Part shown: one piece after another, positions 8,401 to 57,320 of the stretch
Layout: every line of letters begins with the position of its first letter
Position numbering within the stretch: the first letter of the stretch is position 1
Assembly: GCA_049975385.1 (NCBI GenBank)
Contig: JBNGDO010000001.1
Coordinates: forward strand, 2,600-66,599
Length of the DNA stretch: 64,000 bases
Reading direction: 5' to 3'
Source: Anaerolineae bacterium
GTDB lineage: Bacteria; Chloroflexota; Anaerolineae; B4-G1; SLSP01
Program-made: the position numbers and the translations under genes
Notes under the pieces: generated by a model
What the model saw: the letters and a program-made list of their open reading frames with translations, nothing else
What the model was told of the DNA's origin: nothing
Database searches by the model: none

Positions 8401-9382
8401 GACTGTCAACCTCTGCGTCGCGCCCGATGAGCGGGCTGGGTAGCTCATATTCGGGCTTTTCCAGGCTGACGTAGGGCGCAAGAGGCCGGTAGACAGCGAC
8501 GGGTGTGCTCACGCCCTTGACCTTGATCTCGCCGAGCGGTAGCCACTCGAACTGTGAGGTGGTGAGACGGAACGTGTTCTCACTCACCAGCACGGTGCCG
8601 GGTTCGGCGGCGGTTTCCATGCGCGCGGCAAGCGCGATGGCCTCGCCCATAGCCGTTTCTTCCCGGTACTGGCGGTCGTTGCCCACGCTGGTGACGATGA
8701 CCTCGCCCGTGTTGACGCCCACGCGCAGCGCCAGGCTGATGCCCTCGCGTTTTTCCAGGTCAGCGGCGAACGGTTGCAGTGCCGACTGCATCGCCAGGGC
8801 CGCCAGCACCGCGCGCTCCGGGTCGTCCTCGTGCGCCGTCGTCGTCCCGAAGAAGGCAACCAGGCCATCCCCACGGAATTGATCGACTTTGCCGCCGAAA
8901 CGGTAGATCTCCGTTTCCAGGATCTGGAGGACGCGGTTCATCATCTTGACCCACGCCTCGGTGCCGACCTGTTCCATCAGATCGGTGGAACCTTTGACGT
9001 CCGCGAGGATGATCGTTGCCAGGCGGCGTTCCCCTTCGAGTGGAGCTAGATCGCCGGGTTCTGCTGGGCCGGTCGATGCGCTAGAAAGCGCGCTGGGAGG
9101 CGTGCCAGGAGGCGCACCTTCCGGCACACTTTCTCGGATGCTTTCCGGTGCGCCAGCAAATGCCTGATCTGGTATGCGTTCTGGGGGAACCTCCTGTGTC
9201 CGCAGCGGAATAACGTCGAATGCGGAAGCGGCGCTGAGGGGATTGCCGCACTCGCTGCAAAAGCGATGGGCGCGCGGATTTTTCGTCCCGCAGGCCGGAC
9301 AGACCAGCCGGAGACGCGCGCCGCACATCCCACAGAATTTATGTCGTGCGCGAACCTTGAAGCCGCACTCAGGACACTTCAT
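5474..9382 (-). CDS. Double zinc-ribbon + class III adenylate/guanylate cyclase + STAND (AAA_16/NB-ARC-like) ATPase + TPR-repeat protein
   Basis: The N-terminus has four CxxC pairs (CPECG...CGMCG...CPACG...CSECG). The cyclase domain reads RRLATIILADVKGSTDLMEQ...FRGDGLVAFFG...VGVNTGEVIV. The P-loop is GIVILTGEHGMGKS. The C-terminal ~600 aa are TPR-like helical repeats. Confidence 0.85.
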   Translation of the reverse strand: MKCPECGFKVRARHKFCGMCGARLRLVCPACGTKNPRAHRFCSECGNPLSAASAFDVIPLRTQEVPPERIPDQAFAGAPESIRESVPEGAPPGTPPSALSSASTGPAEPGDLAPLEGERRLATIILADVKGSTDLMEQVGTEAWVKMMNRVLQILETEIYRFGGKVDQFRGDGLVAFFGTTTAHEDDPERAVLAALAMQSALQPFAADLEKREGISLALRVGVNTGEVIVTSVGNDRQYREETAMGEAIALAARMETAAEPGTVLVSENTFRLTTSQFEWLPLGEIKVKGVSTPVAVYRPLAPYVSLEKPEYELPSPLIGRDAEVDSLKACIEDLSDGIGGIVILTGEHGMGKSLLTNEVRQYFARQNALLAEARDKGAEVGQPTYPTPSADAEIGVIWLRGRCRSYTQSQPYAVWQDMLRNWLGIRSDEPQEKTRDRLYQQAEMLWGDHADEYYPDLATLLSLPLEADHAEQIRRLDADSLRQQFFLTLRSWVEALTQQGPLVINLSDMQWVDATSLDLLKYCLPLCDYTDLLWLFVFRPDRTSQIWEFRYYIETEYPHRLTSLTLAPLTAEQSQEMIAKLIGPDVLPEATQDLIISKAEGNPYYIQELVRALIFEGILTRAPEDGRWRTTQAVTTLTLPDSLQNLLLASIDRLTPEEQHILQIASVVGTVFWSKIIEVLATHPARVKAHLTALQRAQLIRERGRASELGIEYVFRSSLIRDAAYDRLLNTQRTSYHLRIAEYIESHCCKSDATEPSPQFYGALAYHFRHAGLPDKELDYVLKGAAHAKHVYANAEAGKQFTRALEILDALEHKASDEDQCRAIRIQRFSVLNERRAVFYLMGQFEAMWEDAKALLPLAEQLADDPTFTIDALLQQPGVADYQCKEEIDAGIPMAQQALALAQELGDQRREMESLIAIVNHRLALSDPEWQPLAERALELARQVQDEHFEARLLIGMGGVFAFSDEPSLSMEYLEAAAALAMRQGLDDKITQMSLLNLLGLEFERSGDYYRLLTEYQQERLNISREIGHRPNESKALQACGRIQGIYLGDYQGGLALLEECQRILIGSRDEVYPLFHIAQIQSEQYQYTEALASLERIRDIGEPVQDRGLASLKLVWAILYNALGDEAHLRMALELAEEVQELALQSPLVSRQYEMAALCKATAAHLKLAMLAKDAATAKPGIVYEHLNNALDTAQKALELYQTFGFVQITECVSEEILFRYSQALAANEQPEEATKYLRRAYDEMARKHALIPADSYFRRTYLENILLHQEIRAAYAARVGLILTESGQVPQLSHIPEKF

Positions 9383-9432
9383 GAATCATGATGAATCATG
9401 AATCATGAATCATGAATCATGATTCATGATTT
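9381..9432. repeat. Tandem heptanucleotide repeat (ATGAATC/ATTCATG units, ~7 copies) filling the whole 49-nt spacer between the cNMP-binding gene and the cyclase gene
   Basis: Reads atgaatcatgatgaatcatgaatcatgaatcatgaatcatgattcatgattta, with direct 7-nt periodicity. On the minus strand it provides in-frame TGA stops two codons upstream of the cyclase ATG. Confidence 0.9.
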
Positions 9433-9868
9433 AGTAATAGGCGTTCAGGGCCATACGGAAACGTTTGGCGAGTTCGACCATGATATCCACGGCCATTTCG
9501 CCATCCCGCCTCAGCACGCCGAGGAAGTTCTCGCGGGGGAGAATGAGGCACTCGGTCGATTCGGTGGCGATAACCGATGCGGTGCGCGGGCCGTTGTCGA
9601 GCAGGGCTAACTCGCCAAAGAAGTCCCCAGGCCCAAAGGTGTTGACTACCGCCTTGCTGCCGTCGGCCTTCTCGCGCACGGCCTCGGCTTTTCCGGATGC
9701 AATGACGAAGAATCCGTACCCATCGCGGCCCTGCGGCACAATCACCTCGCCGGGAGCGCACGTACGATCGACGAAAATCCGCGCTAGGTTTTGGATTTGG
9801 CGCTTCTTCAAATTTTCAAAGAGGGGGACTTTACAGAGAATCTCGATTGCTCGTTCCAGGTCTGCCAT
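9431..9868 (-). CDS. Standalone cyclic-nucleotide-binding domain protein (145 aa)
   Basis: MADLERAIEILCKVPLFENL...GDFFGELALLDNGPRTASVIATE is the canonical CAP/cNMP-binding beta-barrel signature with no fused output domain. An AT-rich promoter-like region lies upstream (9890..9960). Confidence 0.85.
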   Translation of the reverse strand: MADLERAIEILCKVPLFENLKKRQIQNLARIFVDRTCAPGEVIVPQGRDGYGFFVIASGKAEAVREKADGSKAVVNTFGPGDFFGELALLDNGPRTASVIATESTECLILPRENFLGVLRRDGEMAVDIMVELAKRFRMALNAYY

Positions 9869-10041
9869 AATGATTCCTCCTTAAGCTGGGCTGGTAACCT
9901 ATTGTTTTATTATAGTTCAATGATGAAAGTGTGCAACCGGGAATACGTTTAAAGACGCTTGCGCGCCACCTCGTGTCGAGTGCGCCGGAATTGGTTCAGT
10001 GCATTGCCAATTGGAAGAAGGTGCCCCACACTATTAGCCTG

Positions 10042-10653
10042 TCACAGTCCCAGGTGTTGCATATCGTTCAATCTGTTCAACACCGGTCCAATACGCTGAA
10101 ATTCAACCTCTGTTAGCGAAGTGTTGCCCAGCGCGAACTGCCAGTAATCGCCCAGGGACTTATGCAGCAGCAGGCACAGCAGCGCCCGGATCGCGCCGCC
10201 GTGCGAGGCGATGAGCACCGTCTGCTCGGGATGCGCGCGCCGGATGTCATCAAGAGCCGCGTGGACCCGCGCTGCGAGCTGCGCCAACGTCTCGCCGCCC
10301 GGCGGAGCGTGGTGGACGCGGTCGGCATTCCACCAGGCTACCGTCTCCGGGAACGCGGCCTCCATCTGCGGATACGTCAACCCGTGCCATTCCCCAAAGC
10401 TCATCTCCCGCCAGCGCGGATCGAGGCGCACGTCGAGCGTGTGATGCCGCGCAATCGCGTGTGCCGTCTCCGCCGCCCGGCAGAGGTCGCTGGCGTAGAT
10501 CGCGTCCAGCGGCGTCATCGCCAACCGCCCGGCGATGGCCTCCGCCTGCCGCAGTCCCGCCGCGCTCAAGGGTACGTCGGTCTGTCCCTGATAGCGTCCT
10601 TCGGCGTTCCACGCTGTCTCGCCATGGCGGACTAAGAATAATCGTAAACTCAT
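10042..10653 (-). CDS. Histidine phosphatase family protein (phosphoglycerate mutase-like / alpha-ribazole phosphatase-like)
   Basis: The N-terminal RHGET.WN motif (LFLVRHGETAWN) and a later catalytic H (ASHGGAIRAL) match histidine phosphatases. Length is 203 aa. Confidence 0.8.
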   Translation of the reverse strand: MSLRLFLVRHGETAWNAEGRYQGQTDVPLSAAGLRQAEAIAGRLAMTPLDAIYASDLCRAAETAHAIARHHTLDVRLDPRWREMSFGEWHGLTYPQMEAAFPETVAWWNADRVHHAPPGGETLAQLAARVHAALDDIRRAHPEQTVLIASHGGAIRALLCLLLHKSLGDYWQFALGNTSLTEVEFQRIGPVLNRLNDMQHLGL

Positions 10654-10919: not shown

Positions 10920-12263
10920 ATGACCGGTATCATCATTCAATGGGTTCGTACTGCGCAGGGCGCCGGAGAACGTCTGAAGCATCAGATCCCCCTTCGGTTT
11001 GTAGATCAGCCTGCGCCTGACCTGGCGTCTGTTACGGTGGACGCCGGCACGCGTTTCCAAACCCTCGAAGGGTTCGGCGGCGCGTTCACCGAGGCGGCAG
11101 CGGTCACGTTGTACAAGATGCCGCCGGAGCAGCAGGCCGAAATCCTCAAGGCGTACTTCGATCCCCAGGCGGGACACGGCTACACGCTTTGCCGGACGCA
11201 TATCAACAGTTGCGACTTCTCGCTGGGTAACTACGCTTACGACGAGGTGGATGGCGACGTGGAACTCGTGCATTTCTCCATCGACCGCGACCGGCAAGCG
11301 TTGATGCCCATGATCAAGGCAGCGATGGACGTTGCGGGTGGGGGGCTCAAGCTCTTCGCCTCGCCGTGGAGCCCGCCCGCGTGGATGAAGACCAACGGCG
11401 AGATGAACCACGGCGGCAAGCTCAAGCCGGAATACCGCGACGCCTGGGCGCGCTACTACTGCCGCTACATTCACGAGTACGAGAAAGCGGGGATTCCCAT
11501 CTGGGGCCTGAGCGTGCAGAATGAGCCATTGGCAGTCCAGACCTGGGATTCCTGCATCTACACGGGCGAGGAGGAGCGCGATTTCGTCCGCGATTACCTC
11601 GGCCCGGCGCTGGAACGCGAAGGGCTGGCGGACGTCAACCTCATCATCTGGGACCACAACCGCGACCTGCTCTACGAACGCGCCAAAATCGTGCTGGACG
11701 ATCCGGCGGCGGCGCGCTACGTGTGGGGGACAGGCTTCCACTGGTACGTCGTCGATGCGTTTGACAACGTGCAGCGGGTGCACGATGCCTATCCCGATAA
11801 GCACCTGCTCTTCACCGAAGGTTGCCAGGAAGGCGGGCCGCATCTTGGCGAGTGGGCCGTGGGTGAGCGCTACGCCCGCTCGATGCTCCACGACCTCAAC
11901 CGCTGGACGGTGGGGTGGGTGGATTGGAACCTGGTGCTGGACGAGATCGGCGGGCCGAACCACGTGGGCAACTATTGCAGCGCGCCCATCATCGCCGACA
12001 CGCGCACAGGCGAAGTGCTCTACCAGTATTCCTACGACTACATCGGCCACTTCTCGCGCTACATCCGCCCCGGCGCGCAGCGCATCATCGCCGCGCCGAC
12101 GTGCGACGAATTGGAAACGACGGCGTTCGTCAATCCTGACGGGCAGATCGCCGTCGTCGTGCTCAACCGCACGGAGAAGGATGTGCCCTTCGCGCTCAAG
12201 TTCGCCGGGCAAGTCGCCGTCACCGACAGTCCGGCGCACTCGATCCAGACGTATTGCTGGTGA
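10920..12263 (+). CDS. Glycoside hydrolase family 30 (glucosylceramidase-like O-glycosyl hydrolase)
   Basis: FGGAFTEAAA, SPWSPPAWMK and SVQNEP are GH30 catalytic-region motifs. The RBS is aggagg, 6 nt upstream of the ATG. Confidence 0.8.
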   Translation: MTGIIIQWVRTAQGAGERLKHQIPLRFVDQPAPDLASVTVDAGTRFQTLEGFGGAFTEAAAVTLYKMPPEQQAEILKAYFDPQAGHGYTLCRTHINSCDFSLGNYAYDEVDGDVELVHFSIDRDRQALMPMIKAAMDVAGGGLKLFASPWSPPAWMKTNGEMNHGGKLKPEYRDAWARYYCRYIHEYEKAGIPIWGLSVQNEPLAVQTWDSCIYTGEEERDFVRDYLGPALEREGLADVNLIIWDHNRDLLYERAKIVLDDPAAARYVWGTGFHWYVVDAFDNVQRVHDAYPDKHLLFTEGCQEGGPHLGEWAVGERYARSMLHDLNRWTVGWVDWNLVLDEIGGPNHVGNYCSAPIIADTRTGEVLYQYSYDYIGHFSRYIRPGAQRIIAAPTCDELETTAFVNPDGQIAVVVLNRTEKDVPFALKFAGQVAVTDSPAHSIQTYCW

Positions 12264-12265
12264 TG

Positions 12266-12365
12266 GGTAATTGGAGATTGGGAATCAGTAATCAGTAATC
12301 GGGGATTGGGAATCAAGCTGGCGTCTTTCCCAATCCCCAGTTACCAGTTGCCGATTACCAATCCC
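12266..12365. repeat. Palindromic intergenic element built from 7-nt modules (GGGATTG/GGAATCA/GTAATCA ... CCCCAGT/TACCAGT/TACCAAT)
   Basis: The left arm ggtaattggagattgggaatcagtaatcagtaatcggggattgggaatc and the right arm ccaatccccagttaccagttgccgattaccaatccc are near-perfect reverse complements around a 15-nt loop. It fills the GH30-methyltransferase intergenic space exactly. Confidence 0.85.
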
Positions 12366-12375
12366 TACACTTGTT

Positions 12376-13026: not shown

Positions 13027-13176
13027 TTACGTACTTATGAACACGAACAAGGATTCTTACCGCGGAGCACGCAGAGTTCGCAGAGTTTTTATGCTTTTTC
13101 TCTGCGTGCTCAGCGATCTCTGCGGTGAAAAAATAAGGGCCGCGCAATGACTGTGTGAACATCAAGGAAATGAGGT

Positions 13177-14265
13177 GTGTCAATGAGCTTGTTATTCAAT
13201 CCTGGCGCCTTTGGTGCATTGAGCTTGCCCAATCGTCTTGTGCGTTCGGCCACTGCGGAGCGCATGGCGGACGATGACGGCCATCCGCTGCCTGAACTTG
13301 CTTCCCTGTACCGCGACCTGGCGCGCGGCGGGGTGGGGCTGATCATCACCGGGCACATGTACGTGCATCCTGCGGGACGGTGTCATCTGGGCATGACGGG
13401 CATCTACGACGACGCGTTGATCCCCGGACTGGCGGCGCTGGTCGATGCTGTGCATCATGAGGGTGGCAAAATCGCCGTGCAGATCAATCACGGCGGGATG
13501 CAATGCGCCCGCGAGAGCGTCGCCGGAACCATAGCGCCCTCGGCGGTGGACGCGTCGTTCCTGCTGCAGCCCGCGCGCGAGATGACGCCGGACGAGATCG
13601 CCACCGCCATCGACGCTTACGCGCAGGCGGCCCGCCGCGCTAAAGCTGCCGGGTTCGACGCGGTGCAACTGCACGGCGCGCACGGCTATCTGATCAACCA
13701 GTTCCTCTCGCCGTTCGTCAATCGTCGCTCCGACGCGTGGGGCGGTGATCTGGAGAATCGGATGCGCTTCCTGCGCGCTGTTTGTACGGCAGTGCGTGCC
13801 CAGGTTGGGCCGGATTACCCGCTGTTCATCAAGTTTGGGATGGTGGACGGCGTCGAGGGCGGCCTGACGCTCGCTGAAAGCGTGCGCGTTGTGGCGGGGC
13901 TGGCGGAGATGGGCCTGGACGCGGTCGAACTCAGCGGCGGGATTACCGCAGGGACCATCCAGAACTCCAAAGCGGGCGTGCGCGCCCCTGAGGATGAGGC
14001 CTACTTTCGCCATTTCGCGCAAGCGGCGCGCCCTGTCACGTCTTTGCCGCTGATGCTCGTCGGCGGTTTCCGTTCGCGGCAGGTGATGGACGATGTGCTG
14101 GACTCTGGCGATGTGGACTTCATCTCGCTGTGCCGTCCGCTCATCGCCGAACCGGACCTTCCACTGCGTCTGCAAGCCGGGCAAACCCGCGCCGCCTGCA
14201 TCTCCGGCAACCGTTGTTGGCCCAAAGCGGAAGGCGAAGGCATTGCTTGCCGGTGTTTGGATTAG
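13177..14265 (+). CDS. Old Yellow Enzyme family NADH:flavin oxidoreductase
   Basis: HGAHGYLINQFLSP...NRRSDAWGG and the overall TIM-barrel layout are typical of OYE / 2,4-dienoyl-CoA-reductase-like flavoproteins. Confidence 0.85.
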   Translation: MSMSLLFNPGAFGALSLPNRLVRSATAERMADDDGHPLPELASLYRDLARGGVGLIITGHMYVHPAGRCHLGMTGIYDDALIPGLAALVDAVHHEGGKIAVQINHGGMQCARESVAGTIAPSAVDASFLLQPAREMTPDEIATAIDAYAQAARRAKAAGFDAVQLHGAHGYLINQFLSPFVNRRSDAWGGDLENRMRFLRAVCTAVRAQVGPDYPLFIKFGMVDGVEGGLTLAESVRVVAGLAEMGLDAVELSGGITAGTIQNSKAGVRAPEDEAYFRHFAQAARPVTSLPLMLVGGFRSRQVMDDVLDSGDVDFISLCRPLIAEPDLPLRLQAGQTRAACISGNRCWPKAEGEGIACRCLD

Positions 14266-14280
14266 CTTTCAGCGGTCAGC

Positions 14281-14390
14281 TATCAGCGATCAGCGGTCAG
14301 CCGGAACGGTAGGTGTTGGCGCATGGTTCAACCACCAAACCACCAAACCACCAAACCACCAAACCACCAAACCACCTAACCACCGAACTG
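14281..14390. repeat. Two adjacent short tandem repeats in the nagB 5' region: (TCAGCGN)x5 then (ACCACCAA)x5
   Basis: Reads cagcggtcagctatcagcgatcagcggtcagcc followed by caaccaccaaaccaccaaaccaccaaaccaccaaaccacctaaccaccgaac, directly upstream of the nagB RBS aaggagg. Confidence 0.85.
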
Positions 14391-14412: not shown

Positions 14413-15153
14413 ATGAATCTACACATCTACAAGACAAAAGATGATATGGGCATGGCGGCGGCAGGGCAGACGGCGCAGTGGCTCAACGCGGCGATTGCGG
14501 CGCGTGGAGAGGCGAACTTGATCCTTGCCACAGGCGCGAGCCAGTTTGAGATGTTGGAAAGCCTCGTTCTTCAGGACGTGGATTGGTCGAAGGTGACGGT
14601 CTTCCATCTGGATGAATACATCGGGTTGCCTGAGACACACCCGGCAAGCTTCCGCAAGTATCTCAAGGAGCGTTTCGTGGATAAGCTGCCAGAGTTGCGG
14701 ATGTTCCACTACGTCAACGGCGAGGCCGCCGATCCGGCCGCCGAATGCGCGAGATTGGGCGCCCTCATTGCCGCGCATCCCATCGACGTGGCGTGCATTG
14801 GCATCGGCGAGAACGGGCACCTGGCGTTCAACGATCCGCCCGCCGACTTCGAGACCGAGGAACCCTACATTGTCGTGGACCTGGACGAGGCCTGTCGCCG
14901 CCAGCAGTTGGGCGAAGGCTGGTTCCCCACGCTCGCGGATGTGCCCGCGCAGGCGATTTCGATGAGCATCCGGCAAATCATGAAGAGCGCCGCTATCGTC
15001 TGCACCGTCCCCGACGCGCGCAAGGCGCAGGCCGTGAAAGGCGCGGTCGAAGGCCCGGTGACGAATCTGCATCCCTCGTCGATTTTGCAGCAGCATCCGC
15101 AGTGCGACCTGTTCCTCGACGAACCGGCAGCGGTACTTTTACGTAATGCGTGA
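14413..15153 (+). CDS. nagB: Glucosamine-6-phosphate deaminase
   Basis: Motifs [13 protein letters not shown] and [13 protein letters not shown]. Length is 246 aa. Confidence 0.85.
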
Positions 15154-15170
15154 TGGTTGAGAGGGCAATT

Positions 15171-15200
15171 CACGTATCACGAGTCACGCATCACGCGAAA
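15171..15200. repeat. Heptanucleotide tandem repeat (CACGNNT x4) in the nagB-nagA spacer
   Basis: Reads cacgtatcacgagtcacgcatcacgcg. If translation were to start at the upstream TTG it would encode YHESRIT. Confidence 0.8.
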
Positions 15201-15213
15201 AGGATGTGTCAAG

Positions 15214-26597: not shown

Positions 26598-27215
26598 ATG
26601 GACATCTGGCAGGGACAGTGGGTACGTCTGCGCGGCGTGGAGCCGGGCGACGCCGATGTTTTCTTCGCGTGGCGTGACAGTGATATGGGGCGCTTTACGG
26701 ATTTTGTAAAGTTCCCACATTCATTGGAAGCCACCCGCAAGCACTTTGAGAAGATGGCGACGTCGGAAGCAAAGGACGACGCTTTCGATTTCGTCATCGA
26801 GAACGAAGGTGGAGAAGCCGTCGGCATTATCAACTCACATACCTGTGACCGACGGGTGGGGTGCTTTATGTACGGCCTGGCGATTGGCCCGGATTATCGT
26901 CGCAGAGGCTACGCCGCCGAAGCCATCCTCCTGCTGTTGCGCTATTTCTTCGATGAACGCAATTACCAGAAGGTCTCGGCGACAGTCTATTCGAACAATG
27001 AAGCCTCACAGCGCCTCCACGAGCGTCTGGGGTTTACGCTGGAGGGCCGCATCCGCCGCGTGGTCTTTACGCTAGGCCAGCACTTCGATGAGCTCCACTA
27101 CGGGATGACGGTGGAAGAGTTTCGGGCGAATAAGCGAATGAGCGAATGGATGAATCAGCGAATGGATGAATCAGCGAATGAGCGAATAGAAGAATTCCCA
27201 ACCACCAATCGCTGA
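26598..27215 (+). CDS. GNAT family N-acetyltransferase (RimJ/RimL-like) with repeat-encoded C-terminal extension
   Basis: Start at MDIWQGQWVRLR, after aggaggggg. The acetyl-CoA motif is RRRGYAAEAILLLLRYFF. The last ~30 aa (ANKRMSEWMNQRMDESANERIEEF...) are encoded by GCGAATN heptamer repeats. Confidence 0.75.
   Translation: MDIWQGQWVRLRGVEPGDADVFFAWRDSDMGRFTDFVKFPHSLEATRKHFEKMATSEAKDDAFDFVIENEGGEAVGIINSHTCDRRVGCFMYGLAIGPDYRRRGYAAEAILLLLRYFFDERNYQKVSATVYSNNEASQRLHERLGFTLEGRIRRVVFTLGQHFDELHYGMTVEEFRANKRMSEWMNQRMDESANERIEEFPTTNR
27126..27188. repeat. Tandem heptanucleotide repeat (GCGAATN x9) inside the 3' end of the GNAT gene
   Basis: Reads gcgaataagcgaatgagcgaatggatgaatcagcgaatggatgaatcagcgaatgagcgaatag. 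Confidence 0.85.
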
Positions 27216-27225: not shown

Positions 27226-27357
27226 CTAATCCCCACTTGCTTTTCTGCGTTGAAAGACAATGGGCAGCAATGGCAAGGCGACCACGTTGAGCGCAGCGAT
27301 GATGACGAACGTCCAGCGGAAACCCCAATACGCTCCCGCCGGGTCGATGAAGTGCTT
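27226..27357 (-). pseudogene. 3' fragment (~43 codons) of an MFS-type transporter gene, truncated at the palindromic repeat element
   Basis: Reverse-complement translation gives TKHFIDPAGAYWGFRWTFVIIAALNVVALPLLPIVFQRRKASGD*, a typical last TM helix plus C-tail. No upstream remainder of the gene exists, and the repeat element starts at 27357. Confidence 0.35.
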
Positions 27358-27469
27358 GGTAATCAGTAATCAGTAATTGGGGATTGGGAATCTGATGGTT
27401 CGTTTGTTCTCCGAACCTGCCAGTTACTAATCCCGAATTACCAATCCCCAATCCCCAATCACCGATTAC
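27357..27469. repeat. Palindromic modular repeat element (same family as 12266..12365)
   Basis: The left arm ggtaatcagtaatcagtaattggggattgggaatc and the right arm ccagttactaatcccgaattaccaatccccaatccccaatcaccgattacc flank an internal hairpin ggttcgtttgttctccgaacc. It overlaps the stop of the GT2 gene. Confidence 0.85.
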
Positions 27470-28403
27470 CGTTTGCCATTCGCAGTTTGCTCTTGAGCAC
27501 CTGACGGTAGGCGGCGATGCGGGCGGCGCGTAGGTCGCGGCGGTGGCCGACGAGCCATTTCGCGCCCTCGACGCCGGTCTGCCAGAGGTATTGGGCGAGC
27601 AGCCAGAGCCGCAGGAGTTCGGCGATGGTGTTGCCGTGGACTTTGCGCGTGTAGCGCACTTTGCTCGATTGGAAGTAGATGTGGCGCGCGGGCACAACCT
27701 GTTCGCTGCTCTTGCCCTCGTGGTGGATGATGCGCGCCTCCGGAAAGTAGACGACGCGCCACCCGGCTTCCCGTATCCGGCGACACCAATCCAGTTCCTC
27801 GGAGTACATAAAGAAGCCCTCGTCCATGCCACCAACTTGCGCGACAACTTCACGGCGTGTCAGCATGGCCGCGCCAGTGATCCAATCCACGTTCTGGATA
27901 AGATCATCGGGTTGCTCTTGCGCGTAGTAATAACGCAACAGCTTGCGCGGCGCGAGTTTTTCGAGCCAGGTGCTTTCGAGGAAAAGCACCGGCAGGGTGG
28001 GGAAGTGACGGCGCGAGGATTGCACGCTGCCGTCGGGATTGAGCAGTTGCGGGCCGGCCATACCTACATCGGGATGCGCCCGGATGTAGTCCACCATGCG
28101 CGGCAGTGCGTCCTCCACGATTTCGGTGTCGGGATTGAGCAGCAGCACGAAGTCGCCTGTGGCGGCGGCGAGGCCCTGATTGTTGCCGCCGGTGAACCCA
28201 CGGTTCTTTGCGTTGGCGATGACGTGCACGTCGGGGAAGGTCGCGCGCAGCATGGCGACGCTCTCATCGTGCGAGGCATTATCGGCGACGATGATTTCTA
28301 ATCCGGGTTTTCCATTCCATGAGGCATAGACGGAGGTGAGGGCACGCTTTAGCAGATCACGCACGTTCCAGCTCACGATAATGACGGACAGAACGGTGTT
28401 CAT
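27459..28403 (-). CDS. Glycosyltransferase family 2
   Basis: VIIVSWN...ADNASHDES...DFVLLLNPDT is the GT-A fold with a DxD-type motif, followed by the later ED..W region. Confidence 0.8.
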   Translation of the reverse strand: MNTVLSVIIVSWNVRDLLKRALTSVYASWNGKPGLEIIVADNASHDESVAMLRATFPDVHVIANAKNRGFTGGNNQGLAAATGDFVLLLNPDTEIVEDALPRMVDYIRAHPDVGMAGPQLLNPDGSVQSSRRHFPTLPVLFLESTWLEKLAPRKLLRYYYAQEQPDDLIQNVDWITGAAMLTRREVVAQVGGMDEGFFMYSEELDWCRRIREAGWRVVYFPEARIIHHEGKSSEQVVPARHIYFQSSKVRYTRKVHGNTIAELLRLWLLAQYLWQTGVEGAKWLVGHRRDLRAARIAAYRQVLKSKLRMANGNR

Positions 28404-34184: not shown

Positions 34185-34270
34185 ACATTTAACCACGAAT
34201 CTACACAAATTCTTGCTTTTGATTCGTGAAAATTTGTGTAGATTCGTGGTCTATCTTTTTTGAGGTGTAA

Positions 34271-35239: not shown

Positions 35240-35299
35240 TACTGGATGCTGGTTCTTAATTCGCTCATTCGCTCATTCTCTATGCGCTGACTCACGCCT

Positions 35300-36451
35300 A
35301 TGACATTCAATTTCCGCTTCTTCGTGAAAGTGTTTGTGACGGTGCTGTTCCGGTCAAAGGCGCCCACTGCCTGGATCTGGCTGCGGCGCGTGGTGGTGTT
35401 GCTGGCTGCCTACGCACTGTTTATCGTTGTGGAGATCGGCAACTGGACCGGATTTTTCCTCGATAACCTTCTTTTTCCCGATCACCGGACGCAGCCTATC
35501 GACGAACCCGTCTTCATCATCGGCAACCCGCGCAGCGGCACGACCTTTCTGCAACGTCTGTTGGCGCGGGATACCGCCAACTTCTCGTGCCTCAAGATGT
35601 GGGAGATTTTCTTCGCGCCGTCGATCACGCAGCGGAAAATCGTCTGGACATTGGGCGCGGTGGATCGCTGGGTGGGTGCCCCGATTAAGCATATCGTCGA
35701 TCGGATAGAAGCGCGCATCCGTGCGTCTACGAAGTTGCACCGGGTAGGCCTGCGCGCACCGGAAGAGGATGAATATCTGCTACTTCACACGGCGTCCACA
35801 ATCGTCGTTGGCTTGCTGTTTGCTGTGCCGGAATTGGCCGCGCCCTACGTTTTCTTCGACCGTGATATTCCGCCGGAGGAGCAAACTCGCGTGATGGCGT
35901 TCTACGCGGCATGCATCCGGCGTCATCTCTATGCGCACAAAGCGCAGGTTCACTTTCTGTCCAAGAATCCGTATTTCACACCAAAGGTAGAAGCGTTACG
36001 CGCATCCTTCCCCGATGCGCATTTCATCGTGCTGGCGCGCAACCCATTGAACGCGATCCCGTCGTATGCGAGTTTGTCGCAGTACGTGTCGCATATCCTG
36101 TACACCAGGAATATACTCTCGGACCACAACTATGTTATCACGGCGACGCAACATTGGTATCGCTATCCGGCAGCGTGTTTGTCCGGCGTATCGGACAGCT
36201 TTATCGAGGTGAAATTCGAGGATATGGTGCACGACCCACGGGCAACGGTGAAAGCGATCTACCAGCACCTTGGTTTTGAGATCAGCCCGGCATTCGATAC
36301 GATTTTGCAACAGGAAACCGAACGAGCACGGACTTACAAGAGCGAACACGAATATTCCCTCGAAAAGATGGGCTTCACCCGCGAGGAAATCTTGACCACA
36401 TACAGCGACATCTTCGAGAAATGGGGGTATGAAAAGAATCATGAATCATGA
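35300..36451 (+). CDS. Membrane-anchored sulfotransferase
   Basis: The N-terminal TM segment is followed by the 5'-PSB motif IIGNPRSGTTFLQRLL and the 3'-PB-like region FIVLARNPLNAIPS. The last codons and the stop are supplied by the heptamer repeat. Confidence 0.65.
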   Translation: MTFNFRFFVKVFVTVLFRSKAPTAWIWLRRVVVLLAAYALFIVVEIGNWTGFFLDNLLFPDHRTQPIDEPVFIIGNPRSGTTFLQRLLARDTANFSCLKMWEIFFAPSITQRKIVWTLGAVDRWVGAPIKHIVDRIEARIRASTKLHRVGLRAPEEDEYLLLHTASTIVVGLLFAVPELAAPYVFFDRDIPPEEQTRVMAFYAACIRRHLYAHKAQVHFLSKNPYFTPKVEALRASFPDAHFIVLARNPLNAIPSYASLSQYVSHILYTRNILSDHNYVITATQHWYRYPAACLSGVSDSFIEVKFEDMVHDPRATVKAIYQHLGFEISPAFDTILQQETERARTYKSEHEYSLEKMGFTREEILTTYSDIFEKWGYEKNHES

Positions 36452-36476
36452 TTCACACATCACGTTTCACGAATCA
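36436..36476. repeat. Heptanucleotide tandem repeat (GAATCAT/TCACNNA) spanning the sulfotransferase stop and the GH4 RBS
   Basis: Reads gaatcatgaatcatgattcacacatcacgtttcacgaatcag. The AATCATG variant supplies the sulfotransferase TGA stop. Confidence 0.85.
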
Positions 36477-36487
36477 GGAGGATCTCT

Positions 36488-37889: not shown

Positions 37890-37953
37890 GTAGACGGTAG
37901 ACAGTAGACGGTAGACGGGGGGGAGTATCCCTGTCTACCGTCTACTGTTTTCT
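37890..37953 (+). terminator. Terminator hairpin built from GTAGACG heptamer repeats
   Basis: gtagacggtagacagtagacggtagacggggggg pairs with ccctgtctaccgtctactg (19-bp stem, one mismatch) and is followed by TTTTCT. Confidence 0.75.
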
Positions 37954-38040
37954 GTCTACCGGTATGCCGTTTAACTTTCAAAGACGGGTATAACTTCAGT
38001 GCAATCTCTTTGCCCTCCTTGCTATACTGTGAAAGCAGGT

Positions 38041-38108
38041 GGGATCAGGGATTAGGGAGCGGGTTGCAGTTGCTTTCCCAATCCCCAGTCCCTAATTCCC
38101 AGTTACCC
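38041..38108. repeat. Palindromic modular repeat element in the 5' leader of the fused oxidoreductase gene
   Basis: gggatcagggattagggagcggg ... cccaatccccagtccctaattcccagttaccc, downstream of a tatact -10-like box. Confidence 0.8.
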
Positions 38109-41587: not shown

Positions 41588-41591
41588 GCGA

Positions 41592-41646
41592 GGATGCAGG
41601 ATGCAGGATGCAAGAGTGTGATTGGATTGCCGGGTGGGGATTGAAT
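41592..41646. repeat. Heptamer repeat (GGATGCA x3) plus GATTGGA-type modules directly after the oxidoreductase stop
   Basis: Reads ggatgcaggatgcaggatgcaag gtgtgattggattgccgggtggggattgaatc. Confidence 0.75.
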
Positions 41647-42002: not shown

Positions 42003-42385
42003 TCGTTGATACTTCAGCGATTGCGGCGATCTTTTTTAAGGAATCCGGATATGAGGATCTGCTAGAGAAGCTCGGTCGTGCTCACGAGGTAGGGATCGGT
42101 GCGCCGACATTGGTCGAATGTGGCATTGTCCTGAGTGCGCGGTTGGGGCGCGATGCACGTGGAATGTTGTCTCGTTTCTTGGAAGAGACTCATGTGTTTA
42201 TTGTGCCCTTTGTTGATGTGCATTACAGTACGGCTGTAACGGCGTGGCAGAAATTTGGCAAGGGAAGACATCCTGCTGCATTGAATTTCGGCGATTGTTT
42301 GACCTATGCTGTTGCCAAGCTGGCGGGAGGCCCCCTGTTGTGTGTAGGCGATGACTTTTCGCAAACCGATCTGGAATTAGCGTAA
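41999..42385 (+). CDS. vapC: PIN-domain toxin VapC
   Basis: MIVDTSAIAAIF (first acidic D), NFGDCLTYAVAK and GDDFSQTDL carry the conserved PIN acidic residues. Length is 128 aa. Confidence 0.8.
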   Translation: MIVDTSAIAAIFFKESGYEDLLEKLGRAHEVGIGAPTLVECGIVLSARLGRDARGMLSRFLEETHVFIVPFVDVHYSTAVTAWQKFGKGRHPAALNFGDCLTYAVAKLAGGPLLCVGDDFSQTDLELA

Positions 42386-42581: not shown

Positions 42582-43373
42582 ATGAACGCTAACCGATTTG
42601 ATGAGTTTGTCCAATTACTGACTCAACTCCCGATAGATGTATGGCAAGCGGCAGTGCTGGAGGAGCCTGAGTGGAAATGGATGCTGCCTTTGTCGAAGGT
42701 GTGGGAATTTGGGCATTTTGCGGTTTTGTTTGTTGTTCTCGGACTGAACGATTACCAGACGAAAGGGAAAGCCGACGTTGGATACTGGCCTAAAGTGGTG
42801 CCTTTGATCCGCCAAGGATCTGAGCCGAAGGATCTGTTGCAATTAATTGATGTTCTGGAACCGTTTTTCATCAGAGAGCGATTCGGGCAAAACAAAACCA
42901 AAAGGCTCAAGCGATTTCTGGAAAGTAATCTTTGCCGTGAGATTTGGGTAAGCAGCCCTTCTTCACTTGCGGCAAATTTCGGACGAATTTGGCACTCCCT
43001 TGGACTTGCAATGAGGCAAAAGTCTACTGATAAAACGATAGCTTTTGCGATGAAGTGTTTGGCGCTTGCGCTTCTAATGGCTAATGAAACTAAGTTTGAC
43101 TTTGGAGCTATCCCAGTACCGGTGGATTCACGAATCCGAAATATCTCGACTCGTCTTGGCCTCACTAGCGGGGATGAAGCGACAGAACGTGAAAGGTGGC
43201 GTAGAGTGCTTGATCGCATTCGCGAATCACATCCTGAAATCACAATGGTACATCTTGATAGCCTTCTTTGGCAAATTGGCACTTTGTCTCCGCAAGAGAT
43301 GAAATCTCATCTCGTAAAACTTGGAAGTGGTAGTCTGGCACCGCGCATTTCTCAACTCTTCTACAGGTTTTGA
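42582..43373 (+). CDS. HhH-GPD-superfamily protein, probable AGOG-like N-glycosylase/DNA lyase (8-oxoguanine DNA glycosylase type); located in a low-GC island
   Basis: AFAMKCLALALLMANETKFDFGAIPVPVDSRIRNISTRLGL matches the glycosylase K...P-V-D-[ST]-x-I-x-R-[VI]-x-x-R-L-G pattern (EndoIII: PTIAVDTHIFRVCNRTQF) with a non-canonical hairpin. Local GC is ~45 % against ~62 % in flanking DNA. Confidence 0.4.
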   Translation: MNANRFDEFVQLLTQLPIDVWQAAVLEEPEWKWMLPLSKVWEFGHFAVLFVVLGLNDYQTKGKADVGYWPKVVPLIRQGSEPKDLLQLIDVLEPFFIRERFGQNKTKRLKRFLESNLCREIWVSSPSSLAANFGRIWHSLGLAMRQKSTDKTIAFAMKCLALALLMANETKFDFGAIPVPVDSRIRNISTRLGLTSGDEATERERWRRVLDRIRESHPEITMVHLDSLLWQIGTLSPQEMKSHLVKLGSGSLAPRISQLFYRF

Positions 43374-43415: not shown

Positions 43416-43745
43416 ATGGAATTCACCGACCTTATTCAACGCGCTCTGTCAATTCGCAAGCTGTATAGCGAGTTTGAGGAACAAAACTACGGCACCTCCT
43501 GGACCAACGAAGAACTGGCCCTGGGTTTTGTGGGCGACGTTGGCGATCTGGTCAAACTTGTCATGGCGCAAAGCGGGCGTCGCACGATCCCCGATGCGGA
43601 AAGTAAATTGGCGCACGAATTGGCCGATTGTCTATGGTCCGTCATCGTTCTTGCCGATGTGCATAACATAGACCTGGAAGACGCCTTTTTACGAACAATG
43701 GACGATCTGAAAAATCACATCAAGAAGAATCTGGTTGTAGGATAA
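43416..43745 (+). CDS. MazG-like nucleotide pyrophosphohydrolase (small all-alpha NTP-PPase)
   Basis: 109 aa. WTNEELALGFVGDVGDLVKLVMA and AHELADCLWSVIVLADVHNIDLEDAF fit the MazG/HisE-like EExxE/D metal-binding helix layout. Low GC. Confidence 0.65.
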   Translation: MEFTDLIQRALSIRKLYSEFEEQNYGTSWTNEELALGFVGDVGDLVKLVMAQSGRRTIPDAESKLAHELADCLWSVIVLADVHNIDLEDAFLRTMDDLKNHIKKNLVVG

Positions 43746-49469: not shown

Positions 49470-50033
49470 ATGCAGACTGCGGACAAGGTTTACGCCAGTA
49501 TCTGGCGGCGCATTGTCGCTTATCTCGTTGATTATGTGATTTCATTCGCAGTGCTTATTCCGCTTCAATATCTTTTTTCAGTTGTGACGCGTGGTTTCCC
49601 CTATAGCTTATTCAAAACCGGGCTACAAATTGAACTTTGGATTCTCCTGACTGTTTCGTTGCCGGTTTGGTTGTACTTCATTTTCAGCGAGCATTCGACT
49701 CACCAGGCTACCTTTGGAAAACGGCTGCTAAGGGTGCGGGTCACACGCGTCTCCGGCGAGAGAATGAGTTTTGCACAGGCCATCCTCCGCACTGCGATCA
49801 AGTTGTTGCCGTGGGAACTGACGCATCTCTCGCTGATGCTGCCTGTGCCTATGTGGTGGGATACAACGCCTAATCTACGCGCTGGAATCGTTATCGCGTA
49901 CGTTCTTGTCGGTGTGTATCTTCTGGTGATGTTGTTGAACAGCCGCCGCCAGAGCGTCCACGATATGATCGCGCGAACGGTTGTGGTAGAAGCGCCGAAG
50001 CATGAAGTGCTAACTTCGTCAGTTGAGGTGTGA
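49470..50033 (+). CDS. RDD-family membrane protein
   Basis: WRRIVAYLVDYVI is the RDD signature. It has three TM segments and is 187 aa long. Confidence 0.6.
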   Translation: MQTADKVYASIWRRIVAYLVDYVISFAVLIPLQYLFSVVTRGFPYSLFKTGLQIELWILLTVSLPVWLYFIFSEHSTHQATFGKRLLRVRVTRVSGERMSFAQAILRTAIKLLPWELTHLSLMLPVPMWWDTTPNLRAGIVIAYVLVGVYLLVMLLNSRRQSVHDMIARTVVVEAPKHEVLTSSVEV

Positions 50034-50035
50034 TG

Positions 50036-50704
50036 ATGTGCGGACGTTTTACTTTGGGTGTGAATCTTGATGATCTGATCGAGGCGTTCCCGGACTTTAC
50101 GTTCCCGCCGGAGACGGAGCCGCGCTACAACATCGCGCCGACGCAGAACGTGATGGTCGTCCCCAACAACACTGCCGGGCACGTGAGCTTCTTTCGGTGG
50201 GGGCTAATCCCCTCTTGGGCCAAGGACCCCGCCATCGGCAACCGGCTAATCAACGCGCGCGGCGAGACACTGGCGGAAAAGCCGTCGTTCCGCGCAGCCT
50301 ATCTCCGACGGCGCTGTTTGATCCTCGCGGATGGTTTCTACGAATGGCAAGTGGTACCCGGCAGCAAGACCAAGCAGCCGATGTATATCCAACTGGCGAC
50401 GAAAAAGCCGTTCGCCTTTGCCGGATTGTGGGAACTCTGGCGGCCCGACGACACGCCCATCCTCTCCTGCACCATCATCACCACCGAGCCGAACGCCCTG
50501 CTCGCGCCGATCCACAACCGCATGCCCGTCATCCTGCCGCCGGACGCCTACGCCTTGTGGCTCGATCCCGCCGAACAGAAACCCGCCGCGCTCAATCACC
50601 TGCTCACGCCCTATCCCGCCGGCCTGATGACCGTCTATCCCGTCTCCCGCCTCGTCAACAGCCCGTCGAACGACACACCCGATGTGGTAATCGGTGAGCA
50701 GTAA
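50036..50704 (+). CDS. SOS-response-associated peptidase (SRAP/YedK/HMCES family) abasic-site processing protein
   Basis: The N-terminal MCGRF places the catalytic Cys at position 2 (third ATG of the ORF). FRWGLIPSWAKD and LADGFYEW are conserved SRAP motifs. Confidence 0.85.
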   Translation: MCGRFTLGVNLDDLIEAFPDFTFPPETEPRYNIAPTQNVMVVPNNTAGHVSFFRWGLIPSWAKDPAIGNRLINARGETLAEKPSFRAAYLRRRCLILADGFYEWQVVPGSKTKQPMYIQLATKKPFAFAGLWELWRPDDTPILSCTIITTEPNALLAPIHNRMPVILPPDAYALWLDPAEQKPAALNHLLTPYPAGLMTVYPVSRLVNSPSNDTPDVVIGEQ

Positions 50705-50786
50705 TCGGTAATCGGGGGAGGGGCTGCAGATCGGCGATTTTTGACTGATTACAAGTTACCAGTTACTGATTACCAATCACCAATCA
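50700..50786. repeat. Palindromic modular repeat element (GTAATCG ... GATTACC family) between the SRAP gene and the M20 peptidase gene
   Basis: gtaatcggtaatcggggg ... gattacaagttaccagttactgattaccaatcaccaatcac. The longer M20 ORF reads through it (PVTDYQSPITF). Confidence 0.8.
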
Positions 50787-50803
50787 CTTTTCTGCGAGGT
50801 CCT

Positions 50804-52177: not shown

Positions 52178-52264
52178 TCGATGTAGTTGCGGTTTCCATA
52201 CCGCGTGCGTAGGTGCGGCTTTCTTGTCAGCAGATTGAGCAGATTAAGCAGATTTTTGGTGTGG

Positions 52265-53064: not shown

Positions 53065-53084
53065 AGCTTACCTCTCGCTCAAAG

Positions 53085-56381: not shown

Positions 56382-56436
56382 TGGGCGTAAGATGTGATAC
56401 GTAAAGCGTGATGTGTGAAACGTGAGCAGAGAATCA
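56382..56436. repeat. Degenerate heptamer repeats (GTGATAC/GTGAAAC/GAATCAC) in the glnA / sugar-isomerase divergent region
   Basis: Reads gatgtgatacgtaaagcgtgatgtgtgaaacgtgagcagagaatcacgtatcag. Confidence 0.65.
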
Positions 56437-56471
56437 CGTATCAGCAAGAAAATTATCTCAAGGAGAACAAA

Positions 56472-57224
56472 ATGACCCGTATTCCCATTGCCCTGCAATT
56501 ATATTCCATTCGCCACGATTGTGAGGAAGACCTGCCTGGTACGCTGAAGGCCGTTGCGGAGATGGGCTACGAAGGTGTGGATTTCGCCGGGTATTATGGC
56601 TACGACGCTCCGACAATCCGCGCGATCCTCGATGATCTGGGCCTTAAGGCTGCGGGATGTCACACCGGCATCCAGACCTTACTCGGCGACGAGTTGCAGA
56701 AGACGGTTGAGTTCAATCGCATTCTCGGCAACAAGTATCTGATCGTGCCCGGCCTGCCAGAATCTTATCGCGATTCCCGCGACGCCTGGCTCAGAACCGC
56801 CGAGGTGTTCAACGAGATCGCGGCCAAACTCAAGCCTGAAGGTATGTTCACCGGCTATCACAACCACCACATCGAGTTCACACCGCTGGATGGTGAACTG
56901 CCGTGGGATACCTTCTTCGGCAACACCGTGCCCGAGGTGGTGATGCAGATCGATCTCGGCAATGCGCTGCACGGTGGGGGCGATCCGGTGGCTTTCCTCA
57001 AACGCTATCCGGGCCGCGCGCGCACGGTGCATCTCAAGGCATACTCCGCGACGAACGACAAGGCGCTCATCGGCGAGGATGACGTGGATTGGACCGAGGT
57101 CTTCCGCGTCTGCGAGGCCGATCCCGTGACCGAGTGGTACATCGTCGAGCAGGAGAGCTACCCGTACTCGCCGCTGGAGAGCGTGGAACGTTGTCTCCAG
57201 GCGCTCAAGGCGATGGGGAAATGA
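56472..57224 (+). CDS. Sugar phosphate isomerase/epimerase (xylose-isomerase-like TIM barrel)
   Basis: Start at MTRIPIALQLYSIR, after aaggag. Metal-binding H/E/D residues are spaced as in the AP-endonuclease-2 / L-ribulose-5-P 3-epimerase fold. Confidence 0.75.
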   Translation: MTRIPIALQLYSIRHDCEEDLPGTLKAVAEMGYEGVDFAGYYGYDAPTIRAILDDLGLKAAGCHTGIQTLLGDELQKTVEFNRILGNKYLIVPGLPESYRDSRDAWLRTAEVFNEIAAKLKPEGMFTGYHNHHIEFTPLDGELPWDTFFGNTVPEVVMQIDLGNALHGGGDPVAFLKRYPGRARTVHLKAYSATNDKALIGEDDVDWTEVFRVCEADPVTEWYIVEQESYPYSPLESVERCLQALKAMGK

Positions 57225-57225
57225 G

Positions 57226-57320
57226 GCAGGATGCAAGAATCAGCGAATCAGCGAATGACTGAATCGGCGGATCACGGATCACGAATCCCCAATTACCAGT
57301 TACCGATTACCAATCATAGA
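57226..57320. repeat. Composite heptamer repeats (GGATGCA, GCGAATC, GGATCAC, then CCAATTACCAGTTACCGATTACC module) between the isomerase gene and uxuA
   Basis: Reads gaggcaggatgcaagaatcagcgaatcagcgaatgactgaatcggcggatcacggatcacgaatccccaattaccagttaccgattaccaatc. Confidence 0.85.

Follow-up and report, generated by a model that had tools for sequence, protein, structure and literature searches.

Heptanucleotide tandem arrays between genes and inside a conserved flavoprotein gene of an Anaerolineae lineage

In this work we analysed a 64-kb stretch of DNA from an Anaerolineae bacterium, called the window below, together with the corresponding loci of its relatives. The window is populated by tandem arrays of seven-nucleotide units which resemble the short tandemly repeated repetitive (STRR) sequences of heterocystous cyanobacteria and which are strongly biased to non-coding DNA. 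We think it probable that they are STRR-like heptanucleotide simple sequence repeats, generated by local duplication and mutation of units with occasional copying from site to site, and confined by selection to spacers, gene ends and permissive loops. The host is not a heterocystous cyanobacterium but a member of the Anaerolineae: the product of the open reading frame (ORF) 38126-41587 is 100% identical to the NCBI protein P0001, labelled 'MAG: FAD-dependent oxidoreductase [Anaerolineae bacterium]' and encoded on a 76.5-kb contig, and the closest genome loci are metagenome-assembled genomes (MAGs) of Chloroflexota, two of which, L024 and L001, share 92% and 90% identity with the window in the glycoside hydrolase GH4 protein.

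Heptanucleotide arrays at gene boundaries

Tandem repeats were searched with Tandem Repeats Finder (TRF) and with our own lag-match scan, which was compared with 20 dinucleotide shuffles. TRF returned 56 rows in the window, period 7 being the commonest and many others falling at 8, 14 and 16. Arrays with periods 7 or 8 (and 14 or 16) were found at 9391-9429, 14269-14301, 14330-14388, 15170-15196, 27126-27187, 36436-36476, 37890-37918 (with 37933-37961), 38778-38847, 40301-40430, 41591-41612, 57237-57314 and 63784-63807; the strongest are 9391-9429 (ATGAATC x5.6, 96% matches), 14330-14388 (AACCACCA x7.4), 38778-38847 (x10) and 40301-40430. The lag-match scan gave 10-11 arrays of period 7, three of period 8, three of 14 and two of 16, with 0-1 arrays for each of the periods 5, 6, 9 and 10, and the shuffles gave 0.0 period-7 arrays and 0.0-0.05 at any period. 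The base autocorrelation of 6.1 kb of intergenic DNA reached 0.289 at lag 7, 0.281 at lag 8, 0.273 at lag 14 and 0.284 at lag 21, for a baseline of about 0.25; coding DNA displayed the period-3 signal alone.

By these three measures the heptanucleotide arrays, which an earlier note had noticed from the sequence, are real and non-random. Among the 14 sites listed there, 12-13 do contain tandem repeats; 56382-56436 has none at a TRF score of at least 30, and 41592-41646 is repetitive as far as 41612 but not beyond. Two other sites are repetitive with a different period, 52222-52250 with a 9-nt unit (AGCAGATTA x2.9) and 58321-58353 with a period of 15, of which 63784-63818 is an 86% dispersed copy. 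At least five arrays were absent from that list (12259-12375, 27356-27481, 35259-35278, 38041-38103 and 50686-50787).

The coverage of arrays was then expressed by gene context, using a self-trained ORF map of the window and two relatives. Arrays occupy 0.6% of coding bases and 7.4% of the bases of co-directional spacers, 12-fold above coding DNA; the values are 5.5% in divergent and 3.6% in convergent spacers, the depletion in divergent spacers (5.5% versus 7.4%) being weak and drawn from few spacers. The arrays had been described as non-coding and placed exactly at gene boundaries. The enrichment in spacers agrees with this description, but the two largest arrays are translated within an ORF of 1153 amino acids (aa) and a third forms the C-terminal tail of a protein. 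At several sites the spacer is indeed filled from the stop codon to the Shine-Dalgarno (SD) sequence or the start codon (9383-9430, 36452-36479 and 57225-57314). Arrays also donate stop codons, namely the TGA at 36449-36451 in GAATCAT units and the TAA at 58321-58323 of a TAACGAC unit. SD sequences, which had likewise been attributed to the arrays, come after them and lie outside them.

The terminator-like stems that had been proposed were recovered by folding and by a terminator scan. The inverted arrays at 37886-37965 fold with a dG of -55.1 kcal/mol (z -9.8) into a 31-bp hairpin followed by UUUUCUG, terminator-like by the scan; those at 12264-12375 reach -47.2 kcal/mol (z -5.0), the array 27356..27481 has a dG of -31.6 (z -2.8) and the array 38041..38103 a z of -2.7. 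Direct arrays, whose z is near 0, are unstructured. On the sense strand, start-proximal arrays (at most 45 nt upstream of a start) contain 8% G and 31% C, with a GC skew of -0.59 and less G than C in 14 of 17, and stop-proximal arrays (at most 25 nt after a stop) contain 27% G and 20% C, with a GC skew of +0.14. The window had no matches in scans for Rfam families and tRNAs, so the arrays are not part of a known RNA family.

Arrays translated within a conserved flavoprotein

The 1153-aa product of ORF 38126-41587, present as one protein in NCBI (P0001), contains Fer2_4, Pyr_redox_2, Fer4, BFD-like 2Fe-2S and DAO domains. The two largest arrays of the window, 38776-38846 and 40297-40430 (both +), lie in frame within it and read as 7-aa repeats. 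The first has ten units of a GAATCAC family drifting to GCGTCAC, translated DHESRITNHESRITDHASRLTRH; the second is a compound of AATCAGCG-type units, then CGAATCA/CGCATCA, then CCTTACT, translated ANQRMGESANSGLRDTNHESRITDRASRITHQGPLTPYSVLPTS. Both stay in frame and free of stops in at least 14 orthologues, whose lengths range from 1123 to 1163 aa.

The first array encodes a 24-residue insert in a loop of Pyr_redox_2, where distant homologues have a turn of 2-3 residues (alignment A1). In 13 close orthologues (P0002-P0014) inserts of 12-55 residues were found at the same loop, all open and in frame and mostly 7-aa-periodic (for example HESRITN, YELRITN, NEKVEIR and PKSKIQN). The second array encodes the interdomain linker between an alpha-like module (Fer2_4/Pyr_redox_2/BFD) and a beta-like module (DAO). 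Unfused homologues, of about 700 aa, stop just short of this array, and in the unfused relative L089 the same junction is a spacer of inverted CGTAATG/TTACGCA arrays which contains stops and is followed by an SD. One junction thus appears as an array-filled spacer in some genomes and as an array-coded linker in others; any direction of change between the two would have to be inferred from these sequences.

In the first coding array, the GAATCAT variant that creates a TGA occurs at units 1 and 4 alone, where the TGA falls out of frame. In the orthologous locus L088 (P0021) the gene is split into ORFs of 294 and 878 aa by a frameshift within array 1 (L088 2780-3100); the cluster of the 878-aa form has seven member sequences. 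The out-of-frame placement of TGA and this frameshift-split orthologue argue that the arrays are translated rather than removed. The apparent N-terminal truncation of another protein, P0017, is due to a scaffold gap and not to a frameshift. In L087, the flavoprotein gene lacks its 5' part as far as the first array, where a run of N stands instead (2901-3000; a scaffold gap or masked sequence); assemblies of these genomes may be broken by arrays.

An AlphaFold model of the 1153-aa protein had a mean predicted local distance difference test (pLDDT) score of 60.6, too weak for fold claims; in this weak model both array-coded segments are among the stretches of lowest confidence, and the first, with low pLDDT at residues 219-240, falls between two strands. 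A peptide search with (HESRITN)6 returned six short hypothetical ORFs only and was uninformative.

A third in-frame array, (CGTCTAC)4, encoding PVYRLPSTVYP, is present in the subclade P0012-P0014 (L085 2979-3008), where it immediately precedes the IVCRCERV motif of the BFD-like 2Fe-2S domain. It shares its unit with the GTAGACG/CGTCTAC hairpin located 2.3 kb upstream. The native sequence CGTCTGCC adjoins this array and could be the seed for it.

Array turnover and competing explanations

The distribution of arrays among relatives was examined with 80 GH4-homologue loci in addition to the window; further relatives (L081, L083, L085, L086 and L089) were reached via flavoprotein orthologues. The window has 1.7 period-7 arrays per 10 kb, L024 has 3.4 and L001 1.4, and the five loci reached via the flavoprotein are also rich in period 7. 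About 69 of the 80 GH4-homologue loci, many Anaerolineae among them, have no array, and a handful have one or two. Dense arrays are thus confined to the closest relatives, which makes the load lineage-specific.

L024 is syntenic with the window over 27.2-42.4 kb, at a nucleotide identity of 74-84%. When the orthologous sites of L024, L001, L081, L083, L085 and L086 were compared with those of the window, position and macro-order of the arrays were kept and unit sequence and copy number were altered. The GTAGACG/CGTCTAC hairpin after the GH4 gene is kept with unit changes in L024, L081, L085 and L087; L083 carries an expanded and L024 a decayed version of the (AGGATGC)3 array at 41591; upstream of GH4 there are GAATCAT units in the window and (CCCAATC)6 in L001, and none in L024. 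Array-coded columns of the flavoprotein are 11-53% identical between orthologues, the other columns 78-93%. Between the SRAP gene and the M20 peptidase gene, L081 (19848-20101) has a spacer filled with (CGAATAA CGAATGG)x5 over 69 nt followed by about 22 copies of TTACTCA/TCACTCA over 155 nt, heptamers quite different from those of the window (50705-50803).

Within arrays, the Hamming distance between units rises steadily from 1.49 for adjacent units to 3.06 for units six or more apart, and the 7-nt register persists for more than 100 nt even across a complete change of unit. This graded divergence in a kept register is the signature of local duplication and point mutation. Near-identical contigs deposited separately, as NCBI MAG, JGI and ENA records, do not differ by a single base across the arrays; they may share raw data.

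We counted about 37 unit families in 61 arrays. Some arrays are compound modules in which five different heptamers occur in a shared order at unlinked sites: 12278-12314 and 27356-27392 are 95% identical, 12332-12363 and 57284-57315 are 94% identical, and 58321-58355 and 63784-63818 are 86% identical. These compound modules were not found in the loci of the relatives. The two intragenic arrays share 76% identity over 87 nt. As for individual units, (GAATCAC)3 was found in at least 120 metagenome contigs with a GC content of 0.30-0.75, themselves rich in period 7. Among IMG/VR contigs, composition-matched control heptamers gave 5, 58 and 12 contigs, for 16 with GAATCAC and 17 with GTAGACG; since controls are as frequent, GAATCAC has no special status and there is no evidence of a unit-specific process. 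The IMG/VR loci L211-L318 are viral contigs with tandem heptamers of arbitrary unit, 5-58 contigs per exact 19-mer, the control unit CAAGCTA being unexpectedly frequent (58 contigs).

A PF01555 N6/N4 DNA methyltransferase gene without obvious restriction partner (33375-34184) is syntenic in L081 and L083. This gene and the GAATC-rich units suggested a link with GANTC (CcrM-type) methylation, which was not supported: GAATC/GATTC alone is raised, 2.4-fold, as are other AT-rich pentamers, and GAGTC/GACTC is not raised. The highly iterated palindrome HIP1 (GCGATCGC), another candidate, has one copy only in the window.

In the explanation that we favour, local duplication or deletion of 7-nt units, brought about by replication slippage or unequal recombination, would combine with point mutation to make arrays grow and turn over, as their pattern suggests, and now and then an entire compound array would be copied elsewhere. 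The pattern of the sites where arrays survive can be seen directly, and selection probably determines it. Arrays would persist in transcribed co-directional spacers, just after stops, up to the SD but not over it, and in C-terminal tails. They would also persist at a few permissive protein sites, where the survivors would be stop-free, of a length divisible by three, and translated as 7-aa-periodic disordered loops or linkers. Units with TGA, TAA or TAG would give stops in all three frames. As judged by folding, inverted array pairs after stops may form very stable hairpins acting as terminators or 3'-end protectors, and the composition of arrays directly 5' of starts, whose sense strand is G-poor and unstructured, suggests an open leader before the SD.

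Several points weigh against this explanation. Slippage alone leaves the preference for 7 nt and the restriction to a single lineage unexplained. The composition of units is non-random, AATC/GATT being present in 31% of them versus 3.7% expected. The near-identical modules of 32-37 nt at unlinked sites, together with CGTCTAC at a new coding site, indicate copying between sites or a shared constraint, beyond in-situ slippage. The absence of copy-number differences in near-identical contigs means that arrays are not hypermutable on short time scales. The terminator and leader roles are proposed from the sequence only and, since nearly all informative genes are on one strand, orientation with respect to transcription is inseparable from orientation with respect to replication.

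Copying could be given a larger part than in our explanation. Arrays would then be actively spread to stops and coding loops by templated copy-and-paste, whether through template switching, ectopic conversion or some unknown enzyme, and would be an engine of fusion, fission and hypervariable loops, with the linker between the alpha-like and beta-like modules of the flavoprotein as a fusion and the frameshifted L088 orthologue as a fission. We regard this as unlikely, though it deserves to be kept in mind.

It is rather improbable that the arrays are cis-regulatory platforms, on which a lineage-specific RNA- or DNA-binding protein with a footprint of roughly 7 nt (cold-shock-domain, S1 or CsrA-like, as proposed for the TAACTGA repeats of Beggiatoaceae) sets the translation or mRNA stability of the flanking genes. 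Such platforms would account for the sense-strand asymmetry of start-proximal arrays, for the contact of arrays with start codons and SDs and for the over-represented AATC/GAAT core, and precedent hypotheses exist in PMC4679880 and in a preprint on Nostoc recF/recO. However, many of the 37 or so unit families lack this core, close relatives have replaced units at orthologous junctions, the same arrays are tolerated within coding sequence, the functions of the flanking genes are unrelated, and the control heptamers of IMG/VR are equally frequent in nature.

To the same small extent we can credit the view that the arrays, above all the compound ones that form hairpins, are small non-autonomous mobile elements, similar to repetitive extragenic palindromic (REP) sequences, their REPIN derivatives, transposable elements of the miniature inverted-repeat type (MITEs) or the small dispersed repeats of cyanobacteria; a trans-acting enzyme would copy them and tandem growth would be secondary. 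The same-order modules at unlinked sites, the resemblance of the two intragenic arrays and the (CGTCTAC)n array at the third coding site of a subclade, whose unit is that of a nearby terminator hairpin, all point this way, as do location rules like those of REPs (unidirectional or convergent ORFs, downstream of genes, some intragenic; PMC3733652). Yet there is neither conserved consensus nor terminal tag nor target duplication, the modules are not found in the relatives' loci, and most arrays are simple direct repeats with the graded unit divergence typical of in-situ growth. Pfam profile scans, which covered 30 of about 47 window genes, revealed no transposase or REP-associated tyrosine transposase (RAYT) among these 30 proteins, and gene conversion among existing arrays would yield the same pattern.

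Contingency loci, in which intragenic or promoter-proximal arrays switch genes by gain or loss of one unit (phase variation), are a very unlikely explanation. Any change by one 7-nt unit does shift the reading frame and the L088 orthologue is split inside array 1, but the arrays are degenerate, with few identical neighbouring units, which disfavours slippage; no indel was seen between the near-identical contigs (which may share raw data), at least 14 orthologues are in frame, and the genes are housekeeping or metabolic rather than those of surface antigens. G-quadruplex elements, as in the GGGNATC repeats of Xanthomonas and Nostoc, have still less in their favour. Units GGGAATC, GGGGATT and GGGATCA occur at 12298-12314, 27380-27392 and 38041-38063 and positional preferences match those of PMC4692102, but a single array of the window (38041-38063, with a C-rich partner) is a G-rich heptamer array with at least four G3 tracts, and GAATCAC, AACCACCA, GTAGACG and CCTTACT units are incapable of forming quadruplexes; as a general explanation this is largely refuted. 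Finally, although the N run beside arrays in L087 illustrates that repeats can break assemblies, the chance that the arrays are assembly or sequencing artefacts is negligible, because the loci of eight relatives (NCBI, JGI and ENA records), each of a different sequence, have arrays at the same junctions, records from different archives agree base for base, and reading frames are maintained across arrays.

Individual arrays, known repeats and significance

The other arrays of the window are described here in order of position; they are on the + strand unless otherwise stated. At 9379..9431 (-), about seven GAATCAT/ATGAATC units fill the whole 48-nt spacer between the stop of a gene for a cyclic nucleotide-binding protein (9431-9868, -) and the ATG (9382) of a zinc-ribbon/adenylate-cyclase/AAA gene (5474-9382, -). 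The compound inverted heptamers of 12259..12375, after the stop of gene 10920-12263, form a long hairpin and read GGTAATT GGGAATC AGTAATC GGGGATT, then further on CCCAATC CCCAGTT ACCAGTT GCCGATT ACCAATC. A non-array hairpin at 13060-13135 (z -5.7) is built on the 9-nt repeat CGCAGAGTT. Array 14269..14301, (TCAGCGN)x4.7, begins 4 nt past the stop of an OYE-type flavin oxidoreductase gene (13183-14265); it is followed at 14330..14388 by the octamer array (AACCACCA)x7.4, G-free and unstructured (fold z -0.2), which lies directly before the SD of gene 14413-15153, 25 nt ahead of its start. The 60-nt spacer 15154-15213 contains (TCACGNA)x3.9 at 15170..15196.

The octamer/16-mer GCGAATNA of 27126..27187 encodes the C-terminal tail (ANKRMSEWMNQRMDESANERIEEF...) of the GNAT ORF 26598-27215, whose GNAT domain ends near residue 166, before the tail. 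At 27356..27481, with no strand assigned, inverted compound heptamers (GGTAATC AGTAATC GGGGATT GGGAATC, and further on CCAATCC CCAATCC CCAATCA CCGATTA) lie between convergent genes and overlap the 3' end of 27459-28403 (-). A non-array hairpin with a U-tail at 34190-34262 (-31.6 kcal/mol, z -9.3) contains CACGAATC, and a related hairpin of L024 is in a different spacer (9780-9840). Spacer 35240-35299 carries the octamer array (ATTCGCTC)x2.5 at 35259..35278. The GAATCAT/NNNTCAC array 36436..36479 supplies the TGA of a sulfotransferase gene (35300-36451) and extends to AGGAGG, the SD of the GH4 gene (ATG 36488), and 2 nt past the GH4 stop begins the array 37890..37961, in which (GTAGACG)x4 is followed by inverted (CNGTCTA)x4. 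Inverted arrays at 38041..38103 (GGGATCA GGGATTA GGGA, and further on CCCAATC CCCAGTC CCTAATT CCCAGTT) lie in the leader of ORF 38126-41587, and (AGGATGC)x3.1 stands 4 nt past the stop of this ORF at 41591..41612.

Array 50686..50787 starts with (GGTAATC)x4, which overlaps the stop of the SRAP gene 50033-50704, and continues with GATTACA AGTTACC AGTTACT GATTACC AATCACC AATCAC, ending 17 nt before the M20 peptidase start. The nonamer array (AGCAGATTA)x2.9 at 52229..52254 is in a convergent spacer, and the nonamer also occurs, in both orientations, in L024 and L001. The compound array 57237..57314 (GAATCAGC x~4, CGGATCA x3, then CCAATTA/CCAGTTA/CCGATTA), unstructured (fold z 0.05), runs from 13 nt past the stop of 56415-57224 to about 20 nt before ATG 57334. 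At 58316..58352, TAACGAC TACCCGAC forms a 7+8 = 15-nt unit, its TAA being the stop of a UxuA-like gene (57334-58323), and the array ends at the SD of the following gene. The dispersed 86% copy of the 58321-58355 module (63784..63818) is directly upstream of a + strand gene start.

Some neighbouring features deserve mention. The segment 41730-43745 comprises a PSK_trans_fac/PIN toxin-antitoxin pair (41730-42385) and, after it, DNA of low GC (about 0.50), in which an N-glycosylase/DNA lyase of AGOG-like type (42582-43373) and a protein resembling MazG (43416-43745) are encoded; different genes at this position in L081 and L083 make it a variable islet. A 774-aa LVIVD-repeat beta-propeller with 12 repeats is encoded at 45195-47519, and its 35-nt DNA repeats (45341, 46097 and 46739) are ordinary protein-repeat periodicity, unrelated to the heptamers. 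A GH42 beta-galactosidase gene (58368-60399) appears as two overlapping ORFs, 58368-58703 (Pfam positions 1-74) and 58651-60399 (83-376), with a frameshift near 58650-58700 in GC-rich sequence outside the heptamer arrays; it may be a pseudogene or an assembly error.

Heptanucleotide STRRs were described in heterocystous cyanobacteria by Mazel et al. in 1990, as cited in PMC4692102. The arrays studied here are alike in their tandem 7-nt units, in their many dispersed and mostly intergenic arrays, in the several unit families per genome and in having no known function. They differ in that the host belongs to the Chloroflexota (Anaerolineae), that arrays are often strongly graded or compound and that some are translated; in addition, CCCCAGT, TTGGTCA and CAACAGT give no tandem dimer in the window. 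The resemblance to STRRs noted earlier is therefore one of kind, in heptanucleotide arrays concentrated in spacers, and not of family. High GC, which had been presented as a distinguishing feature, does not set them apart because heptamers were already described in high-GC Xanthomonas (GGGAATC; PMC4692102) and Burkholderia (Mrazek 2007, via PMC4679880).

According to PMC4679880 and PMC4692102, the heptameric long simple sequence repeats (LSSRs) which Mrazek, Guo and Shah (2007) described in large genomes of non-pathogens have, like our arrays, units of 5-11 nt, 7 being the commonest, and arrays longer than expected by chance; their phylogenetic distribution is scattered and includes high-GC Burkholderia and Xanthomonas, and slippage was proposed as their origin (Mrazek 2007, via PMC4679880). 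With about 7% of co-directional spacer bases and with in-frame coding arrays, the arrays described here are at the high end.

Heptamers with an AATC/GATT core are also known from Xanthomonas and Nostoc as GGGAATC / GGGGA(C/T)T repeats (Rehm et al. 2015, PMC4692102); like ours, they are enriched between co-oriented ORFs, able to form stem-loops when inverted, and variable in length and sequence among close relatives at conserved junctions. Their G-rich strand is sense after stops and their C-rich strand sense before starts, and the GC skew of our arrays follows the same rule. They are rare between divergent ORFs, a depletion that is weak in our arrays. Our units are far more diverse and mostly not capable of forming quadruplexes, and we saw no preference for four units. 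The TAACTGA direct repeats of marine Beggiatoaceae (MacGregor 2015, PMC4679880) are likewise heptamers directly upstream of starts; one of their orientations has stops in every frame, they overlap upstream stops, and occasionally they form arrays within ORFs at protein peripheries. That system has one dominant unit in short arrays of 2-6 copies, whereas the arrays of the window have many units, are longer and graded, and in some cases occupy the interior of a conserved enzyme domain; TAACTGA itself has no occurrence in the window.

REP sequences and bacterial interspersed mosaic elements (BIMEs; Di Nocera et al. 2013, PMC3733652) share with our arrays hairpins downstream of genes between unidirectional or convergent ORFs and some intragenic copies, and these are probably transcribed and may plausibly serve in termination or mRNA stability. 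By contrast, the hairpins of the window are inverted tandem heptamers of differing sequence and not a dispersed conserved palindrome, their modules have only two copies, and there is no general GTAG/CGTC tag, GTAG occurring in the GTAGACG array only. In Chloroflexus, 14-nt short satellites have been described (PMC6749651). Our search of the literature found no description of such repeats in Anaerolineae.

The class of repeats is thus already known and, as canonical STRR and TAACTGA units are not tandem here, the arrays of this lineage are an addition to the kind, outside these two specific families. The locus adds a phylum for which no prior report was found in the literature searched. STRRs were described in 1990, and where heptanucleotide repeats come from and what they do has been debated ever since; the papers cited here still call their role unresolved. 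About a dozen species-level relatives, with roughly 78-93% protein identity outside arrays, now provide a comparative series that allows the birth, drift, replacement and copying of units to be traced site by site. The depletion of G on the sense strand before starts is a concrete, testable constraint at the RNA level. Two additions are the most instructive, namely that arrays are read in frame inside a conserved enzyme and that spacer and linker correspond. The flavoprotein arrays are a natural experiment which shows that coding DNA can fix 7-nt repeats as 21-nt/7-aa super-repeats. The array-filled spacer of one genome matches the domain linker of another, and a single unit change can split a gene.

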